Assembly: GCA_001784435.1 (NCBI GenBank)
Contig: MFQZ01000010.1
Coordinates: 18,917 to 82,916 of the forward strand
Source of the DNA: Candidatus Magasanikbacteria bacterium RIFOXYC2_FULL_42_28
Lineage (GTDB): Bacteria > Patescibacteriota > Patescibacteriia > Magasanikbacterales > GWA2-37-8
Reading direction: 5' to 3'
Length of the DNA stretch: 64,000 nt
The stretch's first letter is position 1, and the number at the start of each line of letters is the position of its first letter. Of the stretch, positions 4,369 to 63,224 are shown one piece after another. Made by a program: the position numbers and the translations under genes. The notes under the pieces were generated by a model. The model did no database searches and was not told the DNA's origin. It was given only the letters and a program-made list of their open reading frames with translations.

Positions 4369-5991
4369 TTATTTCATCTTCTCCCGCAACAACTTCTCCG
4401 CCACCACCGGATCCGCCGCCCCTTCGGTCGCTTTCATCACCATTCCTTTTAAAAACTGTAACAGCGGTTCTTTGCCCGCTTTAAATTTGGCTACCTGTTC
4501 GGGATGGGAAGCGATGACGTCGTCCACAATTTTGCCGAGCGCGCCCTCATCACTCATCTGGCCATAGCCCTTTTCTTCCATAATGTGCGTTGGGTCAATA
4601 TCGGTATTGGCATCTAACATTTCATTTAGGATTTTGGCAGCGTTCGTGGAATTAACACGTCCGGTGTAAAACAACGCCAGCAATTCCGAAAAATTTTCTG
4701 CCGATAATTTCAAAATCCGAATATCAATTTTGCGCTCGGCCATGGCACCCATCAATTTGGAGGTGAGCCAGTTACCGGTTAATTTTGCTAATGCTGATTT
4801 TTTATTATCTAAAATCTCCGAAGTAGTTTTTTTATTTTCGGGCTTGCCCGGCGTAGTCCCACTTGGTGGGACGGAGACGGGTAGAGAATGCAACCACTCC
4901 ACCAAATCCGAATAAACATCTTCGGCATAAGTCGCCCAGTGCGGGTCAGTGGCTAAAATCGCGGCGTCGGCATAAGAAAAACCGTATTCTTCGTGAAAGC
5001 GGGCGCGTTTTTGGGCTGGCAATTCCGGTAATTCAATATTACCGGCAATTTTGGCAGGATTAAAGGGTGGAATATCGGGCTCGGGAAAATAGCGATAATC
5101 AGCCGAAGTTTCTTTAATTCTTTGCATGACAGTTTCGCCTTTGTCATCACTCCAACCGCGGGTCTGTTGGGACCAGGCCTCACCTTTTTCAATCATTGCG
5201 GTTTGGCGTTTGATTTCAAAATCAATCGCTTTTTCAACTGCGCGGAAAGAATTAATATTTTTTACTTCCACTTTATTATTCAATTTATAATCACCGATTG
5301 GTTTAATAACCCCGGCTTCATCAACAAATTTTCCGGTTTCTTGCACCGACACATTGGCCTCACAACGCATTTGCCCTTTTTCCATGTCCGCGTTACTTAC
5401 GCCCAAATAGCGGAAAATTGTTTGTAATTCTTGGCAATAGGCCTTGGCTTCTATCCCGCTTTGAATATCCGGGTCGGAGACAATTTCCACGAGCGGGACG
5501 CCAGCGCGATTAAAATCCACGAGGGTTTCCCCCTCCTGCCCGAGGAGGGGCGAGGGGTGGTGGGAGGCGCCGTGGGTTAATTTGGCCGTGTCTTCTTCCA
5601 TGTGGACACGCGTGATGCCGATGCGGGCGGTGTCGCGGTGGTTTTTTGAAGTGATTAAATTTAAAACAATCGCGCCGTGTTCGCCGACCGGTTGATCAAA
5701 TTGGGAAATTTGATATGCTTTTGGCAAATCCGGATAAAAATAATGTTTGCGGTCAAATTTACTTTCGGTAGCGATTTTACAACCCAAAGCAGTGGCAATT
5801 TTAACAATATCGGTAAGAGCAGTGGCGTTTGGCACGGGTAAAGTCCCTGGGTGGGCGAGGCAGACGGGGCAAATGTTAGTGTTAGGCGCGCCGTGGTCCG
5901 GATCATTTTTACACGCGCAAAACATTTTGGATTTGGTTTTCAGTTCCACGTGGATTTCCAGGCCGATGATGGTGGTGTATTTGGGTGTCAT
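4369..5991 (-). CDS. gatB: aspartyl/glutamyl-tRNA amidotransferase subunit B
   Basis: N-terminal YTTIIGLEIHVELKT, NRAGVPLVEIVSDPD, DYRYFPEPDIPP and a C-terminal GatB/YqeY-like tail. Contains a roughly 14-aa GC-rich insertion (ASHHPSPLLGQEGE). Confidence 0.9.
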   Translation of the reverse strand: MTPKYTTIIGLEIHVELKTKSKMFCACKNDPDHGAPNTNICPVCLAHPGTLPVPNATALTDIVKIATALGCKIATESKFDRKHYFYPDLPKAYQISQFDQPVGEHGAIVLNLITSKNHRDTARIGITRVHMEEDTAKLTHGASHHPSPLLGQEGETLVDFNRAGVPLVEIVSDPDIQSGIEAKAYCQELQTIFRYLGVSNADMEKGQMRCEANVSVQETGKFVDEAGVIKPIGDYKLNNKVEVKNINSFRAVEKAIDFEIKRQTAMIEKGEAWSQQTRGWSDDKGETVMQRIKETSADYRYFPEPDIPPFNPAKIAGNIELPELPAQKRARFHEEYGFSYADAAILATDPHWATYAEDVYSDLVEWLHSLPVSVPPSGTTPGKPENKKTTSEILDNKKSALAKLTGNWLTSKLMGAMAERKIDIRILKLSAENFSELLALFYTGRVNSTNAAKILNEMLDANTDIDPTHIMEEKGYGQMSDEGALGKIVDDVIASHPEQVAKFKAGKEPLLQFLKGMVMKATEGAADPVVAEKLLREKMK

Positions 5992-6061
5992 ATTTTAATT
6001 AAAAACTGGCAGATTATTTCTACCAGTTTAACAGTTTTAGGAAGTTTTGGCAAATTTATTT

Positions 6062-6814
6062 TTAGACAGTGGGAGGGATAGAGTTGACCGGGTTGGCCTT
6101 TAAATTTTCGTATAAAATCAGGCCGGTGGCGATTAATAATGGTAATATTAAAAGTCCAATTATCCGATCAGCAAAACCATTGGCAATTTGCAACTGGATG
6201 ATACTGATATCCGGAAACCAAAATATTATTTGCTTTATAAGCCATTGTAAAAATCCGCCGATGACGGTAAATAATACCGTGGGGGCAAGTAGGCGCCAGA
6301 GTACGGCCCACCAGCGGTTGGTCGCCAGATTTTTGCTCATTTTCATGGCGGTCGTTCCTCGTTCGCCGTCAGCCACGAGCGCATATAAACTAAAATGATA
6401 CCAAACCATGAAAATTATTCCCGGGATAACAAACAATAATGCCCCAACCAAAGTGATTAGTCCGGTTAGAAAAGAAATCCATATTGCCGGTAATATTATT
6501 TTTCCGGCCAGATTTAAGTTGTTCTTAACGCCGGCGATAGGGGCGTTTTTTATAATTTGATCAAAAGTTTTAATCAGCCCGAGGTAAGCCCAAAATGATA
6601 CTAATAATCCAATTAGATATAGCATGGCTAAAATTATATCATCCCAAGTAACGTTGGTAATGGAATTTACCTCCAAACTGATAGTCGCGAACGCGAGCAT
6701 CGCCAAAATAACGGCGGGCGCGAGTGAAATGATTAGATATGCCCAGATCTGTTTAAAATGTTTCAAATACAACGCGGTGCTTTGTTTAATTATGTCGGTG
6801 GTGCTAATAAGCAT
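6062..6814 (-). CDS. polytopic membrane protein, unknown function
   Basis: 250 aa with at least six hydrophobic helices and no recognisable catalytic motif. Confidence 0.5.
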   Translation of the reverse strand: MLISTTDIIKQSTALYLKHFKQIWAYLIISLAPAVILAMLAFATISLEVNSITNVTWDDIILAMLYLIGLLVSFWAYLGLIKTFDQIIKNAPIAGVKNNLNLAGKIILPAIWISFLTGLITLVGALLFVIPGIIFMVWYHFSLYALVADGERGTTAMKMSKNLATNRWWAVLWRLLAPTVLFTVIGGFLQWLIKQIIFWFPDISIIQLQIANGFADRIIGLLILPLLIATGLILYENLKANPVNSIPPTV

Positions 6815-25368: not shown

Positions 25369-25478
25369 AATGTCAAATTTCCAATTTCCAATGTCAAATC
25401 AAATCCAAAGCCAAAATATCAAATTTGACATTTGACATTGTCTTGGAAATTGGGAATTTGGATTTTGAAATTATCATT
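25369..25478. repeat. palindromic MITE-like element, copy C (family P1), ending exactly at the pilB ATG
   Basis: aatgtcaaatttccaatttccaatgtcaaatcaaatccaaagccaaaatatcaaatttgacatttgacattgtcttggaaattgggaatttggattttgaaattatcatt. Confidence 0.85.
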
Positions 25479-27197
25479 ATGTCTTTTCCGTCAATCAATG
25501 ATTTAACAAAAAAAGATGACGATCAAAACGCGCCCCAAACCGGCGCGGATTGGGATTCCACCAAGTCCAAATTTGATCGCAAGATGGGTGATATTCGGAT
25601 TAAAGAATTAGAGCAAGAAGCGTCTGCGTTTGCCACTGCGTCCGGTTTGCAGTATCTGGATTTGACCGGTTTCCCGGTGTCGCCCGAGGCCTTACGCGCG
25701 GTGCCGGAAGCAATCGCCCGTGAAAAAAATCTTGTTTGTTTTTATTATTCTCCGAGCGAATTGCGCGTCGGGGTACTTCTGCCTTTGGAGGAAAATGACG
25801 ATTTTATTTATCAATTGGGCGAACGTCATCACGCGCCGGTTATTACCTATCTGATTTCCGAGCATAGTTTAGAAAAAGTTTTAAAATTATACGCGACTTT
25901 ACCGATTGTCAAACCAATTACCAAAGATGTTAATATCACGGATGAGGAATTAAATAAATTTGGTTCTGATATTAAAGATTTGGCCGGTTTAGAAAAAAAA
26001 TTTCTTAATATTTCCATTACCGATATTTTGTCTTTAATGATTTCCGCGGCGATTAAATTAAACGCGTCGGATATTCACGTGGAAGCCGAAGAAAAAGGCA
26101 TTGCCGTGCGTTATCGCGTGGATGGGGTGTTACACGAAGTGGCCAATTTACCACATTCGGAATGGGAAAAATTTATTTCGCGCATTAAATTGTTGTCGGC
26201 GTTAAAAATCAATGTTAATAATCGTCCGCAAGACGGTCGGGTTACCATTAAACTTGATTCCGGCAGTTTGGATTTGCGCGTGTCCACGTTGCCAACCACT
26301 TACGGCGAATCAGTCGTGATGCGTATTTTGCACAGTGGCACCAAGGGGGTGATGTTTGATGAATTAGGTATTCGCGGAGCGGCGTATGTGCGTTTGAAGC
26401 GCGAAATTGAACGTCCGAACGGTATGATTGTCACCACCGGTCCGACCGGTTCCGGTAAAACTACTACTTTATACGCGATTTTGCGCACTTTGAATAAACC
26501 GGGGGTAAAAATTATTACGGTAGAAGATCCGGTGGAAATTAAAATGCAAGGTGTGGTGCAAAGTCAGGTAGATATTGCTCGTGATTATACTTTTGCCAAG
26601 GCCTTGCGCAGTATTTTGCGTCAGGACCCGGATATTTGTATGGTCGGTGAAATCCGCGATTTAGAATCAGCCGAAATTGCCATCCAGTCCGCTTTGACCG
26701 GTCATTTGCTTTTATCCACTATCCACACCAACAGCGCTTCGGGCGCGATTCCGCGTTTTATGTCAATGGGTGTGAAACCGTTTTTACTTGCGCCGGCTTT
26801 AAACGCGGTGATGGGTCAGCGGTTGGTGCGCCGGATTTGCGAAAAATGTATTGAAGAACAGGAGTTGGACAGCGAAATGTTAGAGCGAGTCGGGAAAATT
26901 ATCGCGTCCTTGCCGGCGGAAGAAAAAGCGCGCGTTACGGAAAAAGGATTAACATTTTATCATGGCAAAGGATGCCCGGAATGTAGTGGGCTGGGCTACA
27001 AAGGCCGAATCGGTATTTATGAAATTTTTGTAATGACCAAAGAAATTGAAAGTTTGATATTGGGCGGTGGCGCTTCGGAATACGAAATCCAAGAGTTGGC
27101 CGCGAAAGATGGGATGTTGACGATGGCGCAAGATGGAATTTTAAAAGCTTTAGATAAAATGACAAGTGTGGAAGAAGTTTTCCGCGTGTCAGAATAA
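25479..27197 (+). CDS. pilB: type II/IV secretion system ATPase (PilB/GspE family)
   Basis: T2SSE N-terminal domain, Walker A GPTGSGKTTTLYA, Asp and His boxes, C-terminal C4 zinc motif CEKC...CPEC. Start MSFPSIND (ATG at 25479). The upstream ORF-track extension is repeat-encoded. Confidence 0.85.
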   Translation: MSFPSINDLTKKDDDQNAPQTGADWDSTKSKFDRKMGDIRIKELEQEASAFATASGLQYLDLTGFPVSPEALRAVPEAIAREKNLVCFYYSPSELRVGVLLPLEENDDFIYQLGERHHAPVITYLISEHSLEKVLKLYATLPIVKPITKDVNITDEELNKFGSDIKDLAGLEKKFLNISITDILSLMISAAIKLNASDIHVEAEEKGIAVRYRVDGVLHEVANLPHSEWEKFISRIKLLSALKINVNNRPQDGRVTIKLDSGSLDLRVSTLPTTYGESVVMRILHSGTKGVMFDELGIRGAAYVRLKREIERPNGMIVTTGPTGSGKTTTLYAILRTLNKPGVKIITVEDPVEIKMQGVVQSQVDIARDYTFAKALRSILRQDPDICMVGEIRDLESAEIAIQSALTGHLLLSTIHTNSASGAIPRFMSMGVKPFLLAPALNAVMGQRLVRRICEKCIEEQELDSEMLERVGKIIASLPAEEKARVTEKGLTFYHGKGCPECSGLGYKGRIGIYEIFVMTKEIESLILGGGASEYEIQELAAKDGMLTMAQDGILKALDKMTSVEEVFRVSE

Positions 27198-29286: not shown

Positions 29287-29308
29287 AAATTAATTTATTA
29301 ACCGACCG

Positions 29309-29341
29309 GATGGAGATTCCTCACATTCGTTCGGAATGACA
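29309..29341. repeat. GC-rich hairpin repeat (family H1), intergenic copy upstream of thrS
   Basis: ggatggagattcctcacattcgttcggaatgaca. Identical core at 60551-60586 inside folC. Confidence 0.7.
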
Positions 29342-29350
29342 TAAAAAAAT

Positions 29351-31096
29351 ATGGACAAAGAACAACTCGAACACCTGCGCCACTCCTGCGCGCACCTACT
29401 CGCCGCGGCGGTTTTGGAATTGTATCCAAACGCTAAACGCACCATTGGTCCGGCGATTGAAAACGGTTTTTATTATGATTTTGATTTCGGGGTGGAGAAA
29501 ATTTCGGAAACAGATTTGAAAAAAATAGAAGAAAAAATGCGCCAAATTGCTCCCACTTGGGAAAAATTTGAACGTCAAGAAGTTAGCGCTAGCGGAGCGA
29601 AAGCTGTTTTTAAAGACAATGAATATAAAATAGAATTAATCGAAGAATTTAGCGTTGACGGGCAAGCGCTTACTTTGTATAAATCCGGCGCTTATGTGGA
29701 TTTGTGCCGCGGTGGGCATAGCGAGAACCCGAGCAAAGAATTAAAACATTTTAAATTATTGTCGGTGGCGGGCGCGTATTGGCGCGGGAGTGAAAAAAAT
29801 AAAATGTTGACGCGTATTTACGGCACTTGTTTTCCGACTAAAAATGAATTGTATGAGCACTTACATCAATTGGAAGAAGCCAAAAAGCGCGATCATCGTA
29901 AAATCGGCGCCGAGCAGGAATTATTTTGTTTTGATGATCGCGTGGGTAAGGGCCAAGTTTTGTGGTTGCCAAACGGCACGATAATTCGTAATGAAGTGGA
30001 AAAATTAACTATAGAAAAAGAATCTGAAGGCGACTATCTGCGCGTGCGTACGCCGCACCTCGCCAAAGAAGAATTATTTTTGACTTCCGGGCATTTGCCG
30101 TATTACAAAGACAGCATGTATCCGCCCATGGTAATGGACGATGGCAACTACTATCTGAAAGCGATGAATTGCCCGCATCACCACACCATTTATAATTTTA
30201 AACCGCACAGTTATCGCGAGTTGCCGCTCCGTTTGGTAGAATATGGTGAATGTTTTCGCAATGAATTGTCCGGCACTTTGGCTGGGTTACTCCGCGTGCG
30301 TGCGATGGCGATGAATGACGCGCATATTTATTGCCGTAAAGAGCAAATTAAAGACGAATTTAAAAGCGTGATGGAACTGGTGATGGAATATTTCCGAATT
30401 TTCAAATTGGAAAATTATTGGTTTCGTCTTTCCAAATGGAGTCCGGATCATTTGGATAAATATATCAACGAACCGGAAAATTGGCAATTTAGCGAGGGGG
30501 TGATTCGGGAGGTGTTACAAGAAATGAAAGTAAAATTTGTGGAAGCCGCGGACGAGGCGGCGTTTTACGGACCGAAGGTAGACGTGATGTTTAAGTCGGT
30601 TATCGGACGCGAAGAAACCATGTCCACTATTCAATTGGATTTCGCGGCGAAAAAGCGTTTTGATTTAAAATACACCGATTCTGATGGCAAAGAAAATAAC
30701 GAGGTGTTTGTGATTCACCGTGCGCCACTGTCAACCCACGAACGGTTTATGGCGTTTTTAATTGAGCATTTTGCCGGTGTTTGGCCGGTCTGGCTCTCAC
30801 CCGTGCAAGTACTCTTCGCGCCGGTGGCGAGCGCGCACGTGGAAGGCGCGAAAAAATTAGCCGGTGAATTTAAAGTTGCCGGCATTCGCGTAGAGACCGA
30901 TGACGCGGACGAAACTGTTGGCAACAAAGTGCGCAAAGCCGTTGGCCGGAAAATTCCGTATATTGTCGTAGTGGGGGATAAGGAACTCGCGGGTGGCGAA
31001 TTAATGGTGCGCGTGCGCGGAGAAGAAAAACCGGCGAAATTTGTGAAAGAAGAATTTTTGGCAAAGGTGGTGGGGGAGATTAAAGCGCGGACGTAA
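29351..31096 (+). CDS. thrS: threonyl-tRNA synthetase (no N-terminal TGS domain; editing-type N2 domain present)
   Basis: HSCAHLLAAAV editing-domain motif, class II core, and HRAPLSTHERFMAFLIEHFAGVWPVWLSP. Confidence 0.9.
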   Translation: MDKEQLEHLRHSCAHLLAAAVLELYPNAKRTIGPAIENGFYYDFDFGVEKISETDLKKIEEKMRQIAPTWEKFERQEVSASGAKAVFKDNEYKIELIEEFSVDGQALTLYKSGAYVDLCRGGHSENPSKELKHFKLLSVAGAYWRGSEKNKMLTRIYGTCFPTKNELYEHLHQLEEAKKRDHRKIGAEQELFCFDDRVGKGQVLWLPNGTIIRNEVEKLTIEKESEGDYLRVRTPHLAKEELFLTSGHLPYYKDSMYPPMVMDDGNYYLKAMNCPHHHTIYNFKPHSYRELPLRLVEYGECFRNELSGTLAGLLRVRAMAMNDAHIYCRKEQIKDEFKSVMELVMEYFRIFKLENYWFRLSKWSPDHLDKYINEPENWQFSEGVIREVLQEMKVKFVEAADEAAFYGPKVDVMFKSVIGREETMSTIQLDFAAKKRFDLKYTDSDGKENNEVFVIHRAPLSTHERFMAFLIEHFAGVWPVWLSPVQVLFAPVASAHVEGAKKLAGEFKVAGIRVETDDADETVGNKVRKAVGRKIPYIVVVGDKELAGGELMVRVRGEEKPAKFVKEEFLAKVVGEIKART

Positions 31097-31107
31097 AATT
31101 AATAAAA

Positions 31108-31143
31108 TAAAAAAACACCGAAGCGATTTGCTTCGGTGCTTTA
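31108..31143. terminator. bidirectional intrinsic terminator between thrS and the GC-rich island
   Basis: aaaaaaacaccgaagcgatttgcttcggtgcttt. Confidence 0.7.
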
Positions 31144-31241
31144 GTTTAAAATACTAAAGGGATGGGCGGCATGGTGAGCGAGAACCTGCCGTCCCATCCG
31201 CAGGCGCGCGGGGGGGGGGTGGGTATCTCGGGAACGGGGGG

Positions 31242-31579
31242 CTATCGGCGGTAGCGCACGGAGACGCGCCGCCCCTTCCACTGTGTGGGGTGGGCGCCGC
31301 GCCTGCTTTCAGCAAGGCACTGCACCTGCCCCCAGCCAGCGCAGTTCTTCAGGAACAGGGCTTCGTTGCCGAAGCCAATGATGAGCTCCTTGGCAGTAGG
31401 CACCTGGCCCTCCCACTTGTCCAGGAAGATCGAGTGGCCGCCGCTGGCGACGACCACGGCGCTGACGACCTCTACCTCCACGCCCCCCCACACTTTTCTT
31501 TGGCGAACTTCTCGCCCCCGTTACAGGCTGAGAGGATGGCGATGGTCAGGGCGATGATGGGGCTGTTGTTGTTGTTCAT
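31242..31579 (-). pseudogene. GC-rich lipoprotein gene interrupted by a frameshift in a G7 homopolymer (phase-variation candidate or disrupted foreign gene)
   Basis: ATG at 31577-31579 is preceded by GGAGA. MNNNNSPIIALTIAILSAC has a signal peptide and LSAC lipobox. The frame is then lost at GGGGGGG (31483-31489). With one extra G it continues as VEVEVVSAVVVASGGHSIFLDKWEGQVPTAKELIIGFGNEALFLKNCAGWGQVQCLAE... to the stop at 31242. Codon third positions are strongly GC-biased, unlike the host genes. Confidence 0.55.
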
Positions 31580-31702
31580 GTTGGCATATCTCCAAAATGG
31601 CCCACGCAGGGCCGTGTGTCAGCCGGATTCAGGGTCGGCTTATCCCCAGGGTGGTCATGCCACCTCTCTTTAGTATTTTAATGTTATTTTAAATGAGCTT
31701 TA

Positions 31703-31738
31703 GAAATTAATCTTTTTGTCTATCTTAGGCAAAAAGAT
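31703..31738. repeat. perfect 12-bp inverted repeat TTAATCTTTTTG-N11-CAAAAAGATTAA at the AT-rich edge of the GC island
   Basis: ttaatctttttgtctatcttaggcaaaaagattaa. Confidence 0.6.
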
Positions 31739-31791
31739 TAATAATCTTAGCACATTTTTGGCGTTTTGTCAAGACCACGCCGCTCGCGCTT

Positions 31792-32556
31792 TCATTTTTT
31801 TAATCTTGCCATGATTGATTTTAAAAATTTATCCGGATGGATTTCTATTTCTTTTATTGCGCTTCTTTCTTTGTATCCGATAATTTTGTCATTTTCGTCA
31901 ACTATTATTGTTTTTGGTTTTGATCCTGGCAAAATAATTTCTTTATCTTTGCCAATAAATTTAATTTCTTCATTTTTAATTACGAGTGCTTGTTCGTCGG
32001 TTAATAATCTGACGAGTAGCGGTTGTTGTTTGGCTTTTTCTTTTATCGCATCCAACATGTCGGGAGTGTAATGTGCCTTGATCAAAAATGGCACCCAGTT
32101 CATGGCGGTAAAATTAGTAATGCCGTACCTGTCTTTGCCTTTTTCAATCCAGGTGGACATAATAATTGACGGGCAAGCGATATACGATCCGGCACTCACG
32201 CCAATGTAAATCACGCCTTGGGCGATCAAATCTTTTGCAACTTCGGCAAAGCCACTTTTACGCACGCATTTTAACAAATAGAAAGTATTGCCGCCGCCCA
32301 TAAAAATAATATCATACCCGGTCAATATTTTTTTCAATTGAGTTTTTGTTTTTCCGGCGATATCAATTTCAGCATAATTCCAACCCAGCTCGTTGAAGCG
32401 GGCGCGATGACGTATTAAATAATTACCCGATGTGGATTTTTGTCCGGCGGTAATAATAAAAGCGATTTTGCAATCCTTTAATTTTTTGGGCAAATATTTA
32501 TCAATGTTTTTGCTGGTGATAAATTGGGTGCTGCTGGCGAGGATAAGGGTAGACAT
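31792..32556 (-). CDS. peptidase S51 family protein (dipeptidase E / cyanophycinase-like)
   Basis: IIFMGGGNTFYLL ... GVIYIGVSAGSYIAC is the catalytic Ser-nucleophile elbow of S51 peptidases. Confidence 0.7.
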   Translation of the reverse strand: MSTLILASSTQFITSKNIDKYLPKKLKDCKIAFIITAGQKSTSGNYLIRHRARFNELGWNYAEIDIAGKTKTQLKKILTGYDIIFMGGGNTFYLLKCVRKSGFAEVAKDLIAQGVIYIGVSAGSYIACPSIIMSTWIEKGKDRYGITNFTAMNWVPFLIKAHYTPDMLDAIKEKAKQQPLLVRLLTDEQALVIKNEEIKFIGKDKEIILPGSKPKTIIVDENDKIIGYKERSAIKEIEIHPDKFLKSIMARLKK

Positions 32557-48037: not shown

Positions 48038-48150
48038 AATGTCAAATTTCCAATTTCCAATGTCAAATCAAATCCAAAGCTCAAATTACAAATTTGGCAT
48101 TTTAATTTTGACATTGATTTGACATTGGAAATTTAGATTTTGAAATTATT
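48038..48150. repeat. palindromic MITE-like element, copy D (family P1)
   Basis: aatgtcaaatttccaatttccaatgtcaaatcaaatccaaagctcaaattacaaatttggcattttaattttgacattgatttgacattggaaatttagattttgaaattatt. Confidence 0.85.
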
Positions 48151-59904: not shown

Positions 59905-61323
59905 TCAATTTTGGGCGGAAATTGGTCGCAATTGTCCGCTAAAGTAGATACTGCCGGTGACTAGCAAAATGTCGCCTGTGTTGAGGGTTTTGTGGATGGT
60001 TTTGTAGGCCTGGATGGGGTTTGGAGATGTTTTGATTTTGGTTTTTGGACAGTCAATTTTGAATAGTTTTGTAAGTTCATTTGGGCTGATTGCCGGTCGC
60101 GCGCCTGGGGCGGTCGTTTGGGAGCAGGTGATGGATATTGGTTTTAGAGTTGATAATTGTTTGACCATTTGTTTGATATTTTTGTCAGCGGAAAAGCCTA
60201 CTAATAGATGCAATGGTCTGTTTTGGCGAAGTTGTTTTAAAGTCGCGACCGTGGTTTTCATTTTATCCGGATTATGCGCGCCGTCTAGAATTATTAACGG
60301 ATTTTTGTGGACAATTTCAAAACGCAGTGGTTGTTTGGCATTTGCCAATCCTTTTTTAATCGCGCTGTCTTTTATTTTTAACGCACGTGCAATTTTAATA
60401 CATAAAATTGCATTGATTATTTGATGTTCGCCCGGGGCGGTTAAAGTGTAGGTTTGATTTTTGTATTTAAAGGTGGTGCTGTATTCGTCAACACCATTTG
60501 TCATCCCGAGCGAGGCTCGCGCCGACGAGGGATCTCCATTAGCGACCGATTGGGATGGAGATTCCTCACATTCGTTCGGAATGACAGGTGAGTGTCGTAA
60601 AATTTGGTAACGCGGTTTATTTATCGTAAATAATTTTGTATTGGTTAGTTTACATTCTTTTTTAATTATTTTTAAGATTTTCGGATCGGTTTCGGCCGTG
60701 AATACTTTGCATCCGGTTTTAATAATGCCAGATTTTTCATAAGCGATTTCTGATTTGTTGTTGCCGATAATTCCAACATGATCCAGTCCGATATTTGTAA
60801 TGACCGCGATATCTTTGTGGGGAATAATATTGCTGGAATCATACCGTCCACCCGCGCCGACCTCGGTTACTAGCCACTCCACTTTTTTATCAGCAAAATA
60901 TTTTAATCCCAGCGCTTCGGTAAATTCAAATAATGATAAATTATCGTAGGGTGTTTTTTTAGTGTAGATTTTATATTTATTTTTTAACCAATTTACCAAA
61001 AACGCAAATTCAGCACGCGAAATTTCGCGGTTGTTAATTTTCCAACGCTCGGTAATGTAGGTCGGGTGTGGGGAAGTGGATAGGCCAACGCGTTTACCCG
61101 AAGCAACTAAAATTGATTGTAAATAAGTCGCGACCGAGCCCTTGCCACTTGTGCCAGTGATATGAATATAATGGGGGATTTTACGTTCGGGATTGCCGAT
61201 TAAATCCAAAAAAAATTGCAGACGTTTTAAATACCAGTCGCAATGATTAGAGTCGGTCAAATATTCTTTGCGTGGGAGTTTGGCAAAATCCAGTAAGAAT
61301 TGTTCGGCTTCTTTGAAGTTCAT
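59905..61323 (-). CDS. folC: folylpolyglutamate synthase / dihydrofolate synthase (Mur ligase family), carrying an in-frame roughly 30-aa repeat-derived insertion
   Basis: ITGTSGKGSVATYL P-loop, VGLSTSPH, EVGAGGRYDSSNII. Insertion RHSPVIPNECEESPSQSVANGDPSSARASLGMTNG is encoded by hairpin repeats. Confidence 0.8.
   Translation of the reverse strand: MNFKEAEQFLLDFAKLPRKEYLTDSNHCDWYLKRLQFFLDLIGNPERKIPHYIHITGTSGKGSVATYLQSILVASGKRVGLSTSPHPTYITERWKINNREISRAEFAFLVNWLKNKYKIYTKKTPYDNLSLFEFTEALGLKYFADKKVEWLVTEVGAGGRYDSSNIIPHKDIAVITNIGLDHVGIIGNNKSEIAYEKSGIIKTGCKVFTAETDPKILKIIKKECKLTNTKLFTINKPRYQILRHSPVIPNECEESPSQSVANGDPSSARASLGMTNGVDEYSTTFKYKNQTYTLTAPGEHQIINAILCIKIARALKIKDSAIKKGLANAKQPLRFEIVHKNPLIILDGAHNPDKMKTTVATLKQLRQNRPLHLLVGFSADKNIKQMVKQLSTLKPISITCSQTTAPGARPAISPNELTKLFKIDCPKTKIKTSPNPIQAYKTIHKTLNTGDILLVTGSIYFSGQLRPISAQN
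60499..60586. repeat. tandem inverted pair of family-H1 GC-rich hairpin repeats located inside the folC reading frame
   Basis: tgtcatcccgagcgaggctcgcgccgacgagggatctcc ... ggagattcctcacattcgttcggaatgaca. Confidence 0.7.
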
Positions 61324-62129: not shown

Positions 62130-63224
62130 TCAAATCCTCCCATAATTCGCTCCATCCATTTTTCTGATTACGCTTTTTAATTCTAACATCGTCAATAGTC
62201 CGTTGACTTCGTGGCTCGGCAGTCCGGCAGTTTGGATAATGGTATCAATATTTTTGGATTCGGTTTCTAACAAATTATAAATAATTTTTTCTTTGTCAGT
62301 CAGGAGTGGTAGAGCGGTTTGGGTAACTTCCGCTTCGGCGCTGGCGATGTTTAGCGTTTCTAAAATGTCATTGGCGCTTGCGGTTAAGTGCGCACCTAAT
62401 TTTATCATTTCGTTTCCGCCGGCGCCCTGTTCGGAATTGTAGAGGTGAGGCACGGCAAAAACTTCGCGGTTGTAATCAAGCGCCAGTCGCGCGGTAATTA
62501 AAGCGCCGGATTGGATGGGTGCTTCGACCACGAGTGTGCCGAGGGTTAGTCCGGCGATAATGCGATTGCGCATCGGGAAATTGGCTTTGGAAATAAACGC
62601 GTCCGGCGAATATTCCGAAAGCACGGCGCCCCCTTCGGCAATAATTTTTTCCGCGAGATATTTGTGGGTGGGCGGGGACACCATTTCGGTCGCGCAACAA
62701 GTGCCCAAAACGGCGATGGTAGTTCCTTTGACATCTAATGTGGCTTGGTGCGCCACGCCGTCAATGCCGAGCGCCAGGCCACTGACAATAACCACACCTT
62801 GCGTGGCCAATGCTTTCGTGAGTTCGCGCGCCGCTAATTCGCCGTAGGGGGTAGAGTGGCGTGTGCCGACGACAGCGACGGCTGGCCGTTCCCAATCGGG
62901 CAGAGTGCCACGATAAAACAGAGCGAGTGGGGCATCGGGAATTTGCCATAACAGCGGGGGATAGCCCGGGTCGGTAAGCGCGAGCGCGGAGAGGCCGTTT
63001 TTTTCCAGGGCGGTAATAATTTTATCAATGGAATTTTGTTCGCGCCAATTTAAATAATCAACAATGATTTGTTCTTCCCAACCCACCCGTTTTAAATCCG
63101 TCAATTCCCATTTTTGCCAATCCTCCAAATTCAAAAAGCCGCCTTTTAATTTGTTAAAGCGGCCACGGGAAAGTTTGGGGAAGTGGACGAGGTAGATGAG
63201 AGGGTTCATTGCGATAATTTTCAA
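62130..63224 (-). CDS. dprA: DNA processing protein DprA/Smf
   Basis: Rossmann-like block AVVGTRHSTPYGELAARELTKALATQGVVIVSGLALGIDGVAHQATL. Confidence 0.85.
   Translation of the reverse strand: MKIIAMNPLIYLVHFPKLSRGRFNKLKGGFLNLEDWQKWELTDLKRVGWEEQIIVDYLNWREQNSIDKIITALEKNGLSALALTDPGYPPLLWQIPDAPLALFYRGTLPDWERPAVAVVGTRHSTPYGELAARELTKALATQGVVIVSGLALGIDGVAHQATLDVKGTTIAVLGTCCATEMVSPPTHKYLAEKIIAEGGAVLSEYSPDAFISKANFPMRNRIIAGLTLGTLVVEAPIQSGALITARLALDYNREVFAVPHLYNSEQGAGGNEMIKLGAHLTASANDILETLNIASAEAEVTQTALPLLTDKEKIIYNLLETESKNIDTIIQTAGLPSHEVNGLLTMLELKSVIRKMDGANYGRI

Follow-up and report, generated by a model that had tools for sequence, protein, structure and literature searches.

Miniature inverted-repeat transposable elements (MITEs) and related non-autonomous elements, such as the Correia elements and the IS630-derived MITEs with their TA duplication, are bounded by terminal inverted repeats. 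Integron cassettes carry an attC site with the R''/R' cores RYYYAAC and GTTRRRY and can insert at secondary sites. Phase-variable surface genes with poly-G/C tracts have been described in Neisseria, Haemophilus, Campylobacter, Bordetella and the M. tuberculosis complex (PMC1891110, PMC8355987, PMC10334774). Horizontal gene transfer and competence-mediated DNA uptake have been reported or proposed for groundwater Patescibacteria (PMC12455944). None of the 10 listed hits of one literature search on phase variation mentioned Patescibacteria, and we found no paper linking Magasanikbacteria, horizontal gene transfer and GC (guanine plus cytosine) content. Here we analyze 64,000 nucleotides (nt) of contig MFQZ01000010.1, a stretch that we call the window and whose first letter is position 1. 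Its source is Candidatus Magasanikbacteria bacterium RIFOXYC2_FULL_42_28, a groundwater bacterium belonging to the candidate phyla radiation (CPR) known as a metagenome-assembled genome (MAG) from the Rifle aquifer. The subject is a high-GC island at 31160-31667, between the threonyl-tRNA synthetase gene thrS and a peptidase S51 gene. An initial annotation had read it as a lipoprotein gene put out of frame at a run of seven G (G7), with a phase-variation switch, a decaying acquired gene, a sequencing error or an assembly chimera as possible causes. We consider it probable that the island is a very recent foreign insertion carrying a broken, most likely non-functional passenger gene, that is, a pseudogene.

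A high-GC island between two converging genes

The island is 508 bp long, has about 65% GC and is sharply bounded at 31160 and 31667. The GC content of positions 31161-31664 is 64.9% against a window mean of 42.8% (standard deviation of 500-nt windows, 4.4%). This is the single GC maximum in the 64-kb window and the sole GC outlier there on the scale of 300-500 nt. Open reading frames (ORFs) overlap within the island on both strands, as the initial annotation had stated. The comparison of composition that it had proposed confirms a compositionally foreign block: the GC content at third codon positions (GC3) is 0.83-0.86, against 0.435 +/- 0.053 in 13 host genes. On the minus strand, the GC fractions at the three codon positions are 0.37/0.40/0.83 in the N-terminal segment of the ORF (31490-31579) and 0.66/0.46/0.86 in the C-terminal 80 codons, which end at a TAG (31242-31481). 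The antisense frames show the wrong order of the first two positions (GC1/GC2), so the minus strand is the coding strand. The island is coding DNA that was shaped in a high-GC genome and has not been ameliorated.

The deposited annotation places one gene in the gap, the hypothetical protein A3J93_03010 (127 amino acids, 31290-31673, plus strand), which is an antisense ORF. Because its first codon position coincides with the GC-rich third position of the sense strand, it is very probably a mis-call. Neither this ORF nor an 83-residue sense ORF of the island has an exact record in the gene index. When the antisense ORF was used for a homology search, its sole match was the hypothetical protein deposited for this genome, so that it offers no further genomic context.

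The proteins encoded on either side of the island are those of the Magasanikbacteria MAG. The two flanking genes point towards each other, and the island sits in the gap separating their 3' ends, with a hairpin on either side. To its left, thrS (29351-31096, plus strand; 581 amino acids; OGH87476.1; Pfam tRNA_SAD, tRNA-synt_2b and HGTP_anticodon) is followed at 31112-31142 by the host's own bidirectional intrinsic terminator hairpin, which is terminator-like on both strands and has a folding z score of -6.1 together with an adjacent small hairpin. To its right, a peptidase S51/dipeptidase E-like gene (31792-32556, minus strand; 254 amino acids) has at its 3' side a long AT-rich hairpin (31691-31757; folding z score -5.1). 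Judging by its predicted fold, this hairpin is probably the terminator of the S51 gene. It shares part of its sequence with a minus-strand promoter-like element, TTGACA-17-TAAGAT (31772-31744).

The relatives of the threonyl-tRNA synthetase (ThrRS) are CPR bacteria and are at most about 75% identical. In the closest syntenic relative that we found (L086, GCA_964413355.1), the S51 protein is 67% identical and the terminator hairpin 3' of thrS is conserved. There the spacer between thrS and the S51 gene has 85 nt, versus 695 nt in the window, and contains no island. No island-like sequence was present at any of 80 thrS loci of other CPR genomes, which show no synteny beyond thrS itself.

Other assemblies of the same organism were retrieved by an exact-protein look-up of both flanking genes. 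The whole island, with identical junctions and orientation, is present in contig k141_369497 of ENA ERZ27254748 (MEGAHIT) and in Logan SRR3989339_62334. Logan SRR2090171_14648 is 100% identical to the window from 35643 down to 31235, the G7 included, and contig C687J26860_1000141 of JGI 3300002209 extends 50 nt past the left junction, to its end at 31209. In terms of retrieved loci, the junctions are identical in L081/L083, L084 and L085, and the left junction is also found in L082. The junctions and the G7 agree across four assemblers and no fewer than three accessions, which stand for two or more read sets besides that of the window; some read sets may be shared between assemblies.

Several features near the spacer were noted separately. 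The S51 protein has 45 extra C-terminal residues (31792-31929, minus strand) in comparison with its homologues of about 209 amino acids; this extension is lineage-specific and adjoins the rearranged spacer. We considered it as a remnant of a truncated Nudix gene and dropped the idea, to which a PDB sequence search gave no support. In two other Magasanikbacteria, a block of about 430 nt with about 50% GC, in surroundings of 35-37%, directly follows the thrS terminator (L005, 5860-6290; L008, about 5880-6300). The two blocks are 70% identical to each other and hold a weakly conserved small hydrophobic minus-strand ORF. They have no Rfam or tRNA match and are unrelated in sequence to the island.

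The interrupted reading frame

The gene start proposed in the initial annotation is present on the minus strand, with a spacer of 9 nt instead of 10. A Shine-Dalgarno-like GGAGA, read from the sequence at 31593-31589, precedes an ATG at 31579-31577, and the product begins MNNNNSPIIALTIAILSAC. As it stands, this N-terminal frame segment is an ORF of 35 amino acids (31472-31579) with a predicted signal peptide and a lipobox, L-S-A-C. The C-terminal segment (31242-31493) runs for 80 codons from the G run to the TAG, with a GC3 of 0.86. Between about 31510 and about 31480 the high-GC3 codon phase moves by one, and a codon-by-codon reading places the break inside AAG TGT GGGGGGG. Thus, the frame is indeed lost at the G7 run (31483-31489, C7 on the plus strand), which is identical in the window, ENA ERZ27254748, Logan SRR3989339 and Logan SRR2090171, that is, in the consensus sequences of all four assemblies that cover it. 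One added G (or a -1 slip) joins both segments into a single GC3-biased ORF. It ends at the TAG at 31242-31244, as claimed earlier, and encodes 112 amino acids rather than about 113.

The lipoprotein assignment holds in part. A hydrophobic stretch without charges is present, and the sequence IALTIAILSAC that includes it fits the PROSITE-style pattern [LVI][ASTVI][GAS]C, with the Cys at position 19. The classical PROSITE rule for lipoproteins, PS00013, demands a Lys or Arg among the first seven residues and a Cys at position 15-35. The n-region, MNNNNSP, contains neither Lys nor Arg, which weakens the lipoprotein call. We describe the product as lipoprotein-like, its lipidation being a prediction.

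A second long tract lies in the 3' untranslated region of the ORF. On the plus strand, positions 31210-31241 read G10-T-G3-TATCTC-G3-AAC-G6, a G-quadruplex-like sequence with at least four G-runs. The G10 tract at 31210-31219, which the initial annotation had pointed out, is real. A run of at least ten occurs in 0.8% of shuffles of island composition and is thus unusual. In three other assemblies, among them ENA ERZ27254748 and Logan SRR3989339, position 31220 is G instead of the T of the window, which turns G10-T-G3 into G14; this is the sole difference between the window and these three over 4.8-7.7 kb. Contigs end at 31209 (JGI) and at 31235 (Logan SRR2090171), flanking or within the G-rich stretch. 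This suggests a local problem of sequencing or coverage, or instability of the tract, at 31210-31241 and not at the G7.

The database search with the repaired protein that the initial annotation had suggested brought no convincing homologue among about 15 billion proteins, as far as sequence comparison can tell. There was no match in Pfam, NCBIfam or PHROGs and none in 5.8 billion protein clusters. A HMMER search against 1.84 billion representatives gave eight weak matches (best E = 1.7e-9). It turned out that all eight are sums over many repeats in large surface proteins (giant adhesins, FG-GAP) of unrelated repeat families. Back-translated patterns of the repaired protein were not found in viral or JGI metagenome contigs; a pattern from the DNA of the left flank was also absent from the JGI metagenome contig collection searched, so that collection does not contain this organism. 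Searches of plasmids and phages by blastn and tblastn were negative, and the exact island DNA was absent from the GTDB genomes and viral contigs searched. An AlphaFold2 model of the repaired protein, calculated without an alignment, was unusable (predicted local distance difference test score of 41).

One weak likeness gives a lead rather than a finding. Residues 43-108 of the repaired protein, encoded in the C-terminal segment, align to single blades of the FG-GAP_2 protein P0008 with 36% identity over 67 amino acids, and the offsets between signal peptide and first blade match in the two proteins. A profile of the P0008 blades covers approximately the whole mature region as one blade, with an hhalign probability of 47%. 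The FG-GAP_2 match has a whole-library E value of 6.4e-4, summed over repeats, and there is no match in Pfam. If this likeness holds, the ORF would consist of a signal peptide and one blade; it may then be the 5' fragment of a longer repeat-protein gene.

Island boundaries and a second island

An inverted repeat of 17 nt (14 nt perfect, 16/17 or 94% overall), which had been overlooked in the initial annotation, brackets the island exactly at both GC boundaries. A repeat search places its AT-rich left arm, TTAAAATACTAAAGGGA, at 31146-31162 (plus strand; 14 nt perfect) and its right arm, TCTCTTTAGTATTTTAA, at 31665-31681 (minus strand). The terminal repeat can be written as TTAAAATACTAAAG. Past a 2-nt indel the repeat extends imperfectly into the GC-rich part as GGYGGCATG. 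In composition-matched shuffles, a perfect inverted repeat of at least 12 nt anywhere in a 1-kb region occurred in 3.4% of cases. The left arm also pairs with CTTTAGT at 31139-31145 in a local 7-bp hairpin.

Both island ends carry a GC hairpin that abuts the AT-rich arm. The hairpin of the left end (31160-31199, minus strand) is followed by CUUUAGUAUUUU and has a folding z score of -6.3 together with a neighboring hairpin; from this predicted fold it may be the terminator-like 3' end of the ORF. At the right end, the short hairpin GGGTGGTCATGCCACCT (31649-31665, plus strand) mirrors the left one, and GGYGGCATG is common to both ends in inverted orientation. The junctions may be read in three ways: the inverted repeats may be terminal ones next to a TA/TTAA duplication that is itself a palindrome, the 7 bp CTTTAGT found at both 31139 and 31668 may be a direct repeat, or the island may be an insertion at the exact center of a pre-existing AT-rich palindrome of 28 bp. 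The outermost TA/TTAA is itself palindromic and is indistinguishable from the repeat.

Other repeats in this genome were recorded as side observations. Palindromic repeats resembling repetitive extragenic palindromes (REP-like), GGATGGAGATTCCTC...CGGAATGACA, are scattered over intergenic spots. Copies stand at 29308-29341 and 60553-60586, one 34-nt copy being exact, and beyond the window at 1200-1300 and 1611-1700 of locus L091. A motif related to them sits after thrS in the syntenic relative L086. Recorded along with these were repeats of about 111 nt at 279-389, 25369-25473 and 48038-48148.

When the window was extended by 10 kb on both sides, the readable sequence of this genome came to about 84 kb. 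A second island lies approximately 7.4-8.0 kb past the right end of the window (L091, 1760-2340; JGI 3300002209 contig C687J26860_1000203), between a GIY-YIG nuclease gene and recG. It has 581 bp and 66% GC in a locus of 44% GC and starts with a G8 right after an AT-rich terminator hairpin. Two overlapping ORFs of 69 and 86 amino acids, with GC3 of 0.80 and 0.75, have a strong ribosome-binding site and an upstream palindrome. Their products have no match in Pfam or among phages, viral contigs or plasmids. The second island has no sequence similarity to the first and no comparable flanking repeat. In both islands the G/C tract lies 3' of the ORFs on the sense strand, and the three G/C runs of at least 7 in the 84 kb are all within the two islands. 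The second island suggests that such capture recurs in this genome, and the first is probably one case of a repeated small-scale capture of high-GC DNA.

A similar composition was seen elsewhere in a CPR contig (k141_714163 of MAG binchicken_co23_77; L036, 1-640). There a lipoprotein gene with GC3 = 0.90, whose product of more than 206 amino acids starts MTWLHRVVLLLGLLLMLGAC..., lies directly upstream of a trpS of 46% GC. It has no Pfam match, and its GC-rich part runs off the locus.

Weighing of the explanations and comparison with known systems

Among the explanations offered at first, a horizontally acquired and decaying gene fits best: the GC3 is foreign, the island is absent from the syntenic relative, and the ORF is a frameshifted orphan. 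The donor would be a high-GC bacterium, and the insertion would have taken place in the spacer where thrS and the S51 gene meet with their 3' ends. The insert would comprise one minus-strand gene unit, with a Shine-Dalgarno sequence, ATG, signal peptide with lipobox, about 90 codons, stop codon, C-rich 3' region and terminal hairpin; a one-base frameshift in the G7 would have made it a pseudogene. The acquisition was presumably recent, because the composition is unameliorated. The window also carries genes for DprA (62130-63224, minus strand) and for a T2SSE-type pilus/secretion ATPase (25425-27197, plus strand), which by sequence are consistent with a capacity for DNA uptake. Entry may have occurred by uptake of environmental or host DNA, for which DprA and the type IV pilus/type II secretion ATPase could serve. 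Integration would have proceeded either by capture at the center of the AT-rich palindrome or by transposition of a small element bounded by inverted repeats, and the 14-nt perfect boundary repeat fits either mode.

Several points weigh against this explanation. The nearest relative is distant, as the identities of the S51 protein and ThrRS show, so there is no true empty site for comparison. No donor matched in any collection searched, so that the grounds for the word "foreign" are the composition and the lack of the island in relatives. The explanation does not account for the boundary repeat of 14 nt or for the poly-G/C edges. The second island is present in one assembly only. The assemblies that support the junctions are independent as assemblers, not necessarily as samples. 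Both frames are open apart from the single homopolymer lesion, and a contingency gene in its OFF phase or a gene expressed by -1 frameshifting would look alike.

An assembly artifact, in which high-GC reads of a contaminant were wrongly joined into the CPR contig, would account for the abrupt change of composition, the lack of homologues and the fact that contigs of two assemblies break within the island. These breaks fall in the G-rich tract, away from the junctions. The junctions show no repeat of k-mer length. Both match to the base in the deposited assembly, in MEGAHIT and in the Logan contigs of two runs, and the JGI contig also spans the left one. Since the junctions and the G7 are shared, a chimera is effectively excluded. 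An intact gene with G8 in the cell, shown as G7 through a systematic homopolymer error in sequencing or consensus, is also quite unlikely. The nearby G-rich stretch does trouble sequencing or assembly (the T or G at 31220, the contig ends), but four assemblies made by different assemblers from at least three accessions all have G7. Moreover, for short-read platforms, which we assume to have been used here, a homopolymer of 7 bases is on the short side to give a systematic indel in the consensus. Expression of the ORF by programmed -1 frameshifting is not favored: a T precedes the G7, hence there is no X XXY YYZ heptamer, and the first strong hairpin downstream follows after about 27 nt. It is doubtful, too, that the G7 is a slipped-strand switch of a CPR surface lipoprotein, ON with G8 and OFF with G7, in a population that is OFF. 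Such a contingency locus would agree with a frameshift that falls exactly in a homopolymer and is the only lesion in either segment, with the signal peptide and lipobox pattern, with the intact ribosome-binding site and 3' hairpin, and with the absence of G/C runs of at least 7 from the 84 kb outside the two islands. However, a G/C run of at least 7 occurs in 21% of mononucleotide shuffles of island composition. The G7 is invariant in four assemblies, including the unitig-based Logan contigs, which are expected to break at a balanced polymorphism. There are no homologues, hence no conserved gene or tract, the foreign DNA is unameliorated and has had little time to acquire a host-specific switch, and the n-region lacks Lys and Arg. 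The other long tracts (G10-14, G8) are outside ORFs, and one is at the edge of the second island, so that long G/C tracts would seem to come with the foreign DNA and not to have evolved as a switch. Homopolymers are ordinary indel hotspots, so that a single lesion in one of them is the first expected product of decay in an unselected gene. Thus, the switch postulated in the initial annotation has found no positive support.

For a small mobile element we see a limited chance. It could be a non-autonomous, MITE-like transposon with a passenger gene and a TA/TTAA duplication, or an inverton flipped by a recombinase. It would explain the inverted repeat at exactly the island boundaries, with its low frequency in shuffles, the inward extension as GGYGGCATG, the hairpins at both ends and the outermost TA/TTAA, possibly a target duplication. 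But no further copy of the repeat was found in the window, in 20 kb of extra flank or in 650 kb of related CPR loci, and its outer 14 nt resemble the AT-rich host in composition rather than the cargo. No transposase or recombinase was found among the called neighbors. The TA/TTAA is palindromic and competes with the direct repeat CTTTAGT, and the second island has no such repeat. An inverton is further opposed by the same orientation in all four assemblies and by the absence of a recombinase within about 4 kb. A structured non-coding RNA gene closed by a long terminal stem, for which the inverted repeat would provide the closing stem, can hardly be right, although RNA genes in AT-rich genomes do tend to be GC-rich. 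The whole 546-nt minus strand does fold with a z score of -3.9, but this is due to the terminal repeat only: without it the interior shows no excess stability (z = -1.35). Rfam gave no match at E < 1, the three-base periodicity with its phase jump is a coding signature, and there are no homologues in which covariation could be sought. We rejected the RNA reading on these grounds.

A broader idea, which we regard as improbable, is that this CPR bacterium repeatedly captures pieces of high-GC DNA, each about 0.5 kb long, where there are hairpins or terminators, possibly from cells it lives on, by an undescribed route or as tiny cargo elements. It is based on at least two islets in about 84 kb, small orphan ORFs and 3' poly-G/C tracts, with one islet at the center of a 28-bp palindrome. 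If true, it would imply an undescribed route of integration, for example the repair of breaks at cleaved hairpins with imported DNA, or a new class of tiny cargo elements, and the islets would be sequence tags by which one could trace the host or donor of a CPR lineage from groundwater. If a recent insertion with a decaying gene is the right explanation, the island is an ordinary but unusually clean case of a very recent gene-sized capture by an ultra-small, probably symbiotic bacterium. The annotation should then show a frameshifted lipoprotein-like pseudogene in place of A3J93_03010, and the island should not be cited to argue that CPR bacteria show phase variation. Nor need an abrupt GC islet in a CPR MAG be a chimera. 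Of greater potential value is the pattern of two unrelated islets, poly-G/C edges and an insertion at a palindrome center. If a donor is found in metagenomes of the same aquifer, the islets could reveal physical interaction partners of groundwater CPR bacteria.

We compared the island with five kinds of known systems. Homopolymeric contingency loci have in common with it a poly-G run early in an ORF whose product is predicted to be exported or lipid-anchored, where one base restores the frame. Here, in contrast, the consensus length shows no heterogeneity, the tract does not exceed the length expected by chance for this GC content, and the gene is a foreign orphan, possibly a fragment. The resemblance to MITEs lies in terminal inverted repeats, small size, an intergenic position near terminators, terminal hairpins and a possible TA duplication; unlike them, the island is single-copy within the sequence searched and has a complete ORF of foreign composition, a host-like outer repeat and no cognate transposase found. 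As in integron cassettes, about 0.5 kb of non-host composition carries one orphan ORF that has no promoter and precedes an imperfect palindrome, whereas the boundaries have no RYYYAAC/GTTRRRY cores by eye (no formal attC model was applied) and there is no integrase or cassette array nearby. The beta-propeller surface proteins of the FG-GAP_2 family (PF14312) share the single-blade alignment and the signal peptide/blade offsets. The ORF has one blade versus seven stretches in the matched proteins, and its other weak matches belong to unrelated repeat families. With the horizontally acquired islets and orphan pseudogenes of Patescibacteria (PMC12455944), the island shares the jump in GC and GC3, the absence from a syntenic relative, a harmless intergenic site flanked by terminators, a lesioned orphan gene and a host with DNA-uptake functions. 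It is far smaller than the acquired genomic islands usually reported (0.5 kb, one gene), lacks an integrase, a tRNA and an att site, has a perfect inverted repeat of 14 nt at its borders and has no donor found. The island most likely belongs to a kind already known, that of small islets acquired by horizontal transfer, here with an orphan gene in decay, and the features of its junctions are unusual.

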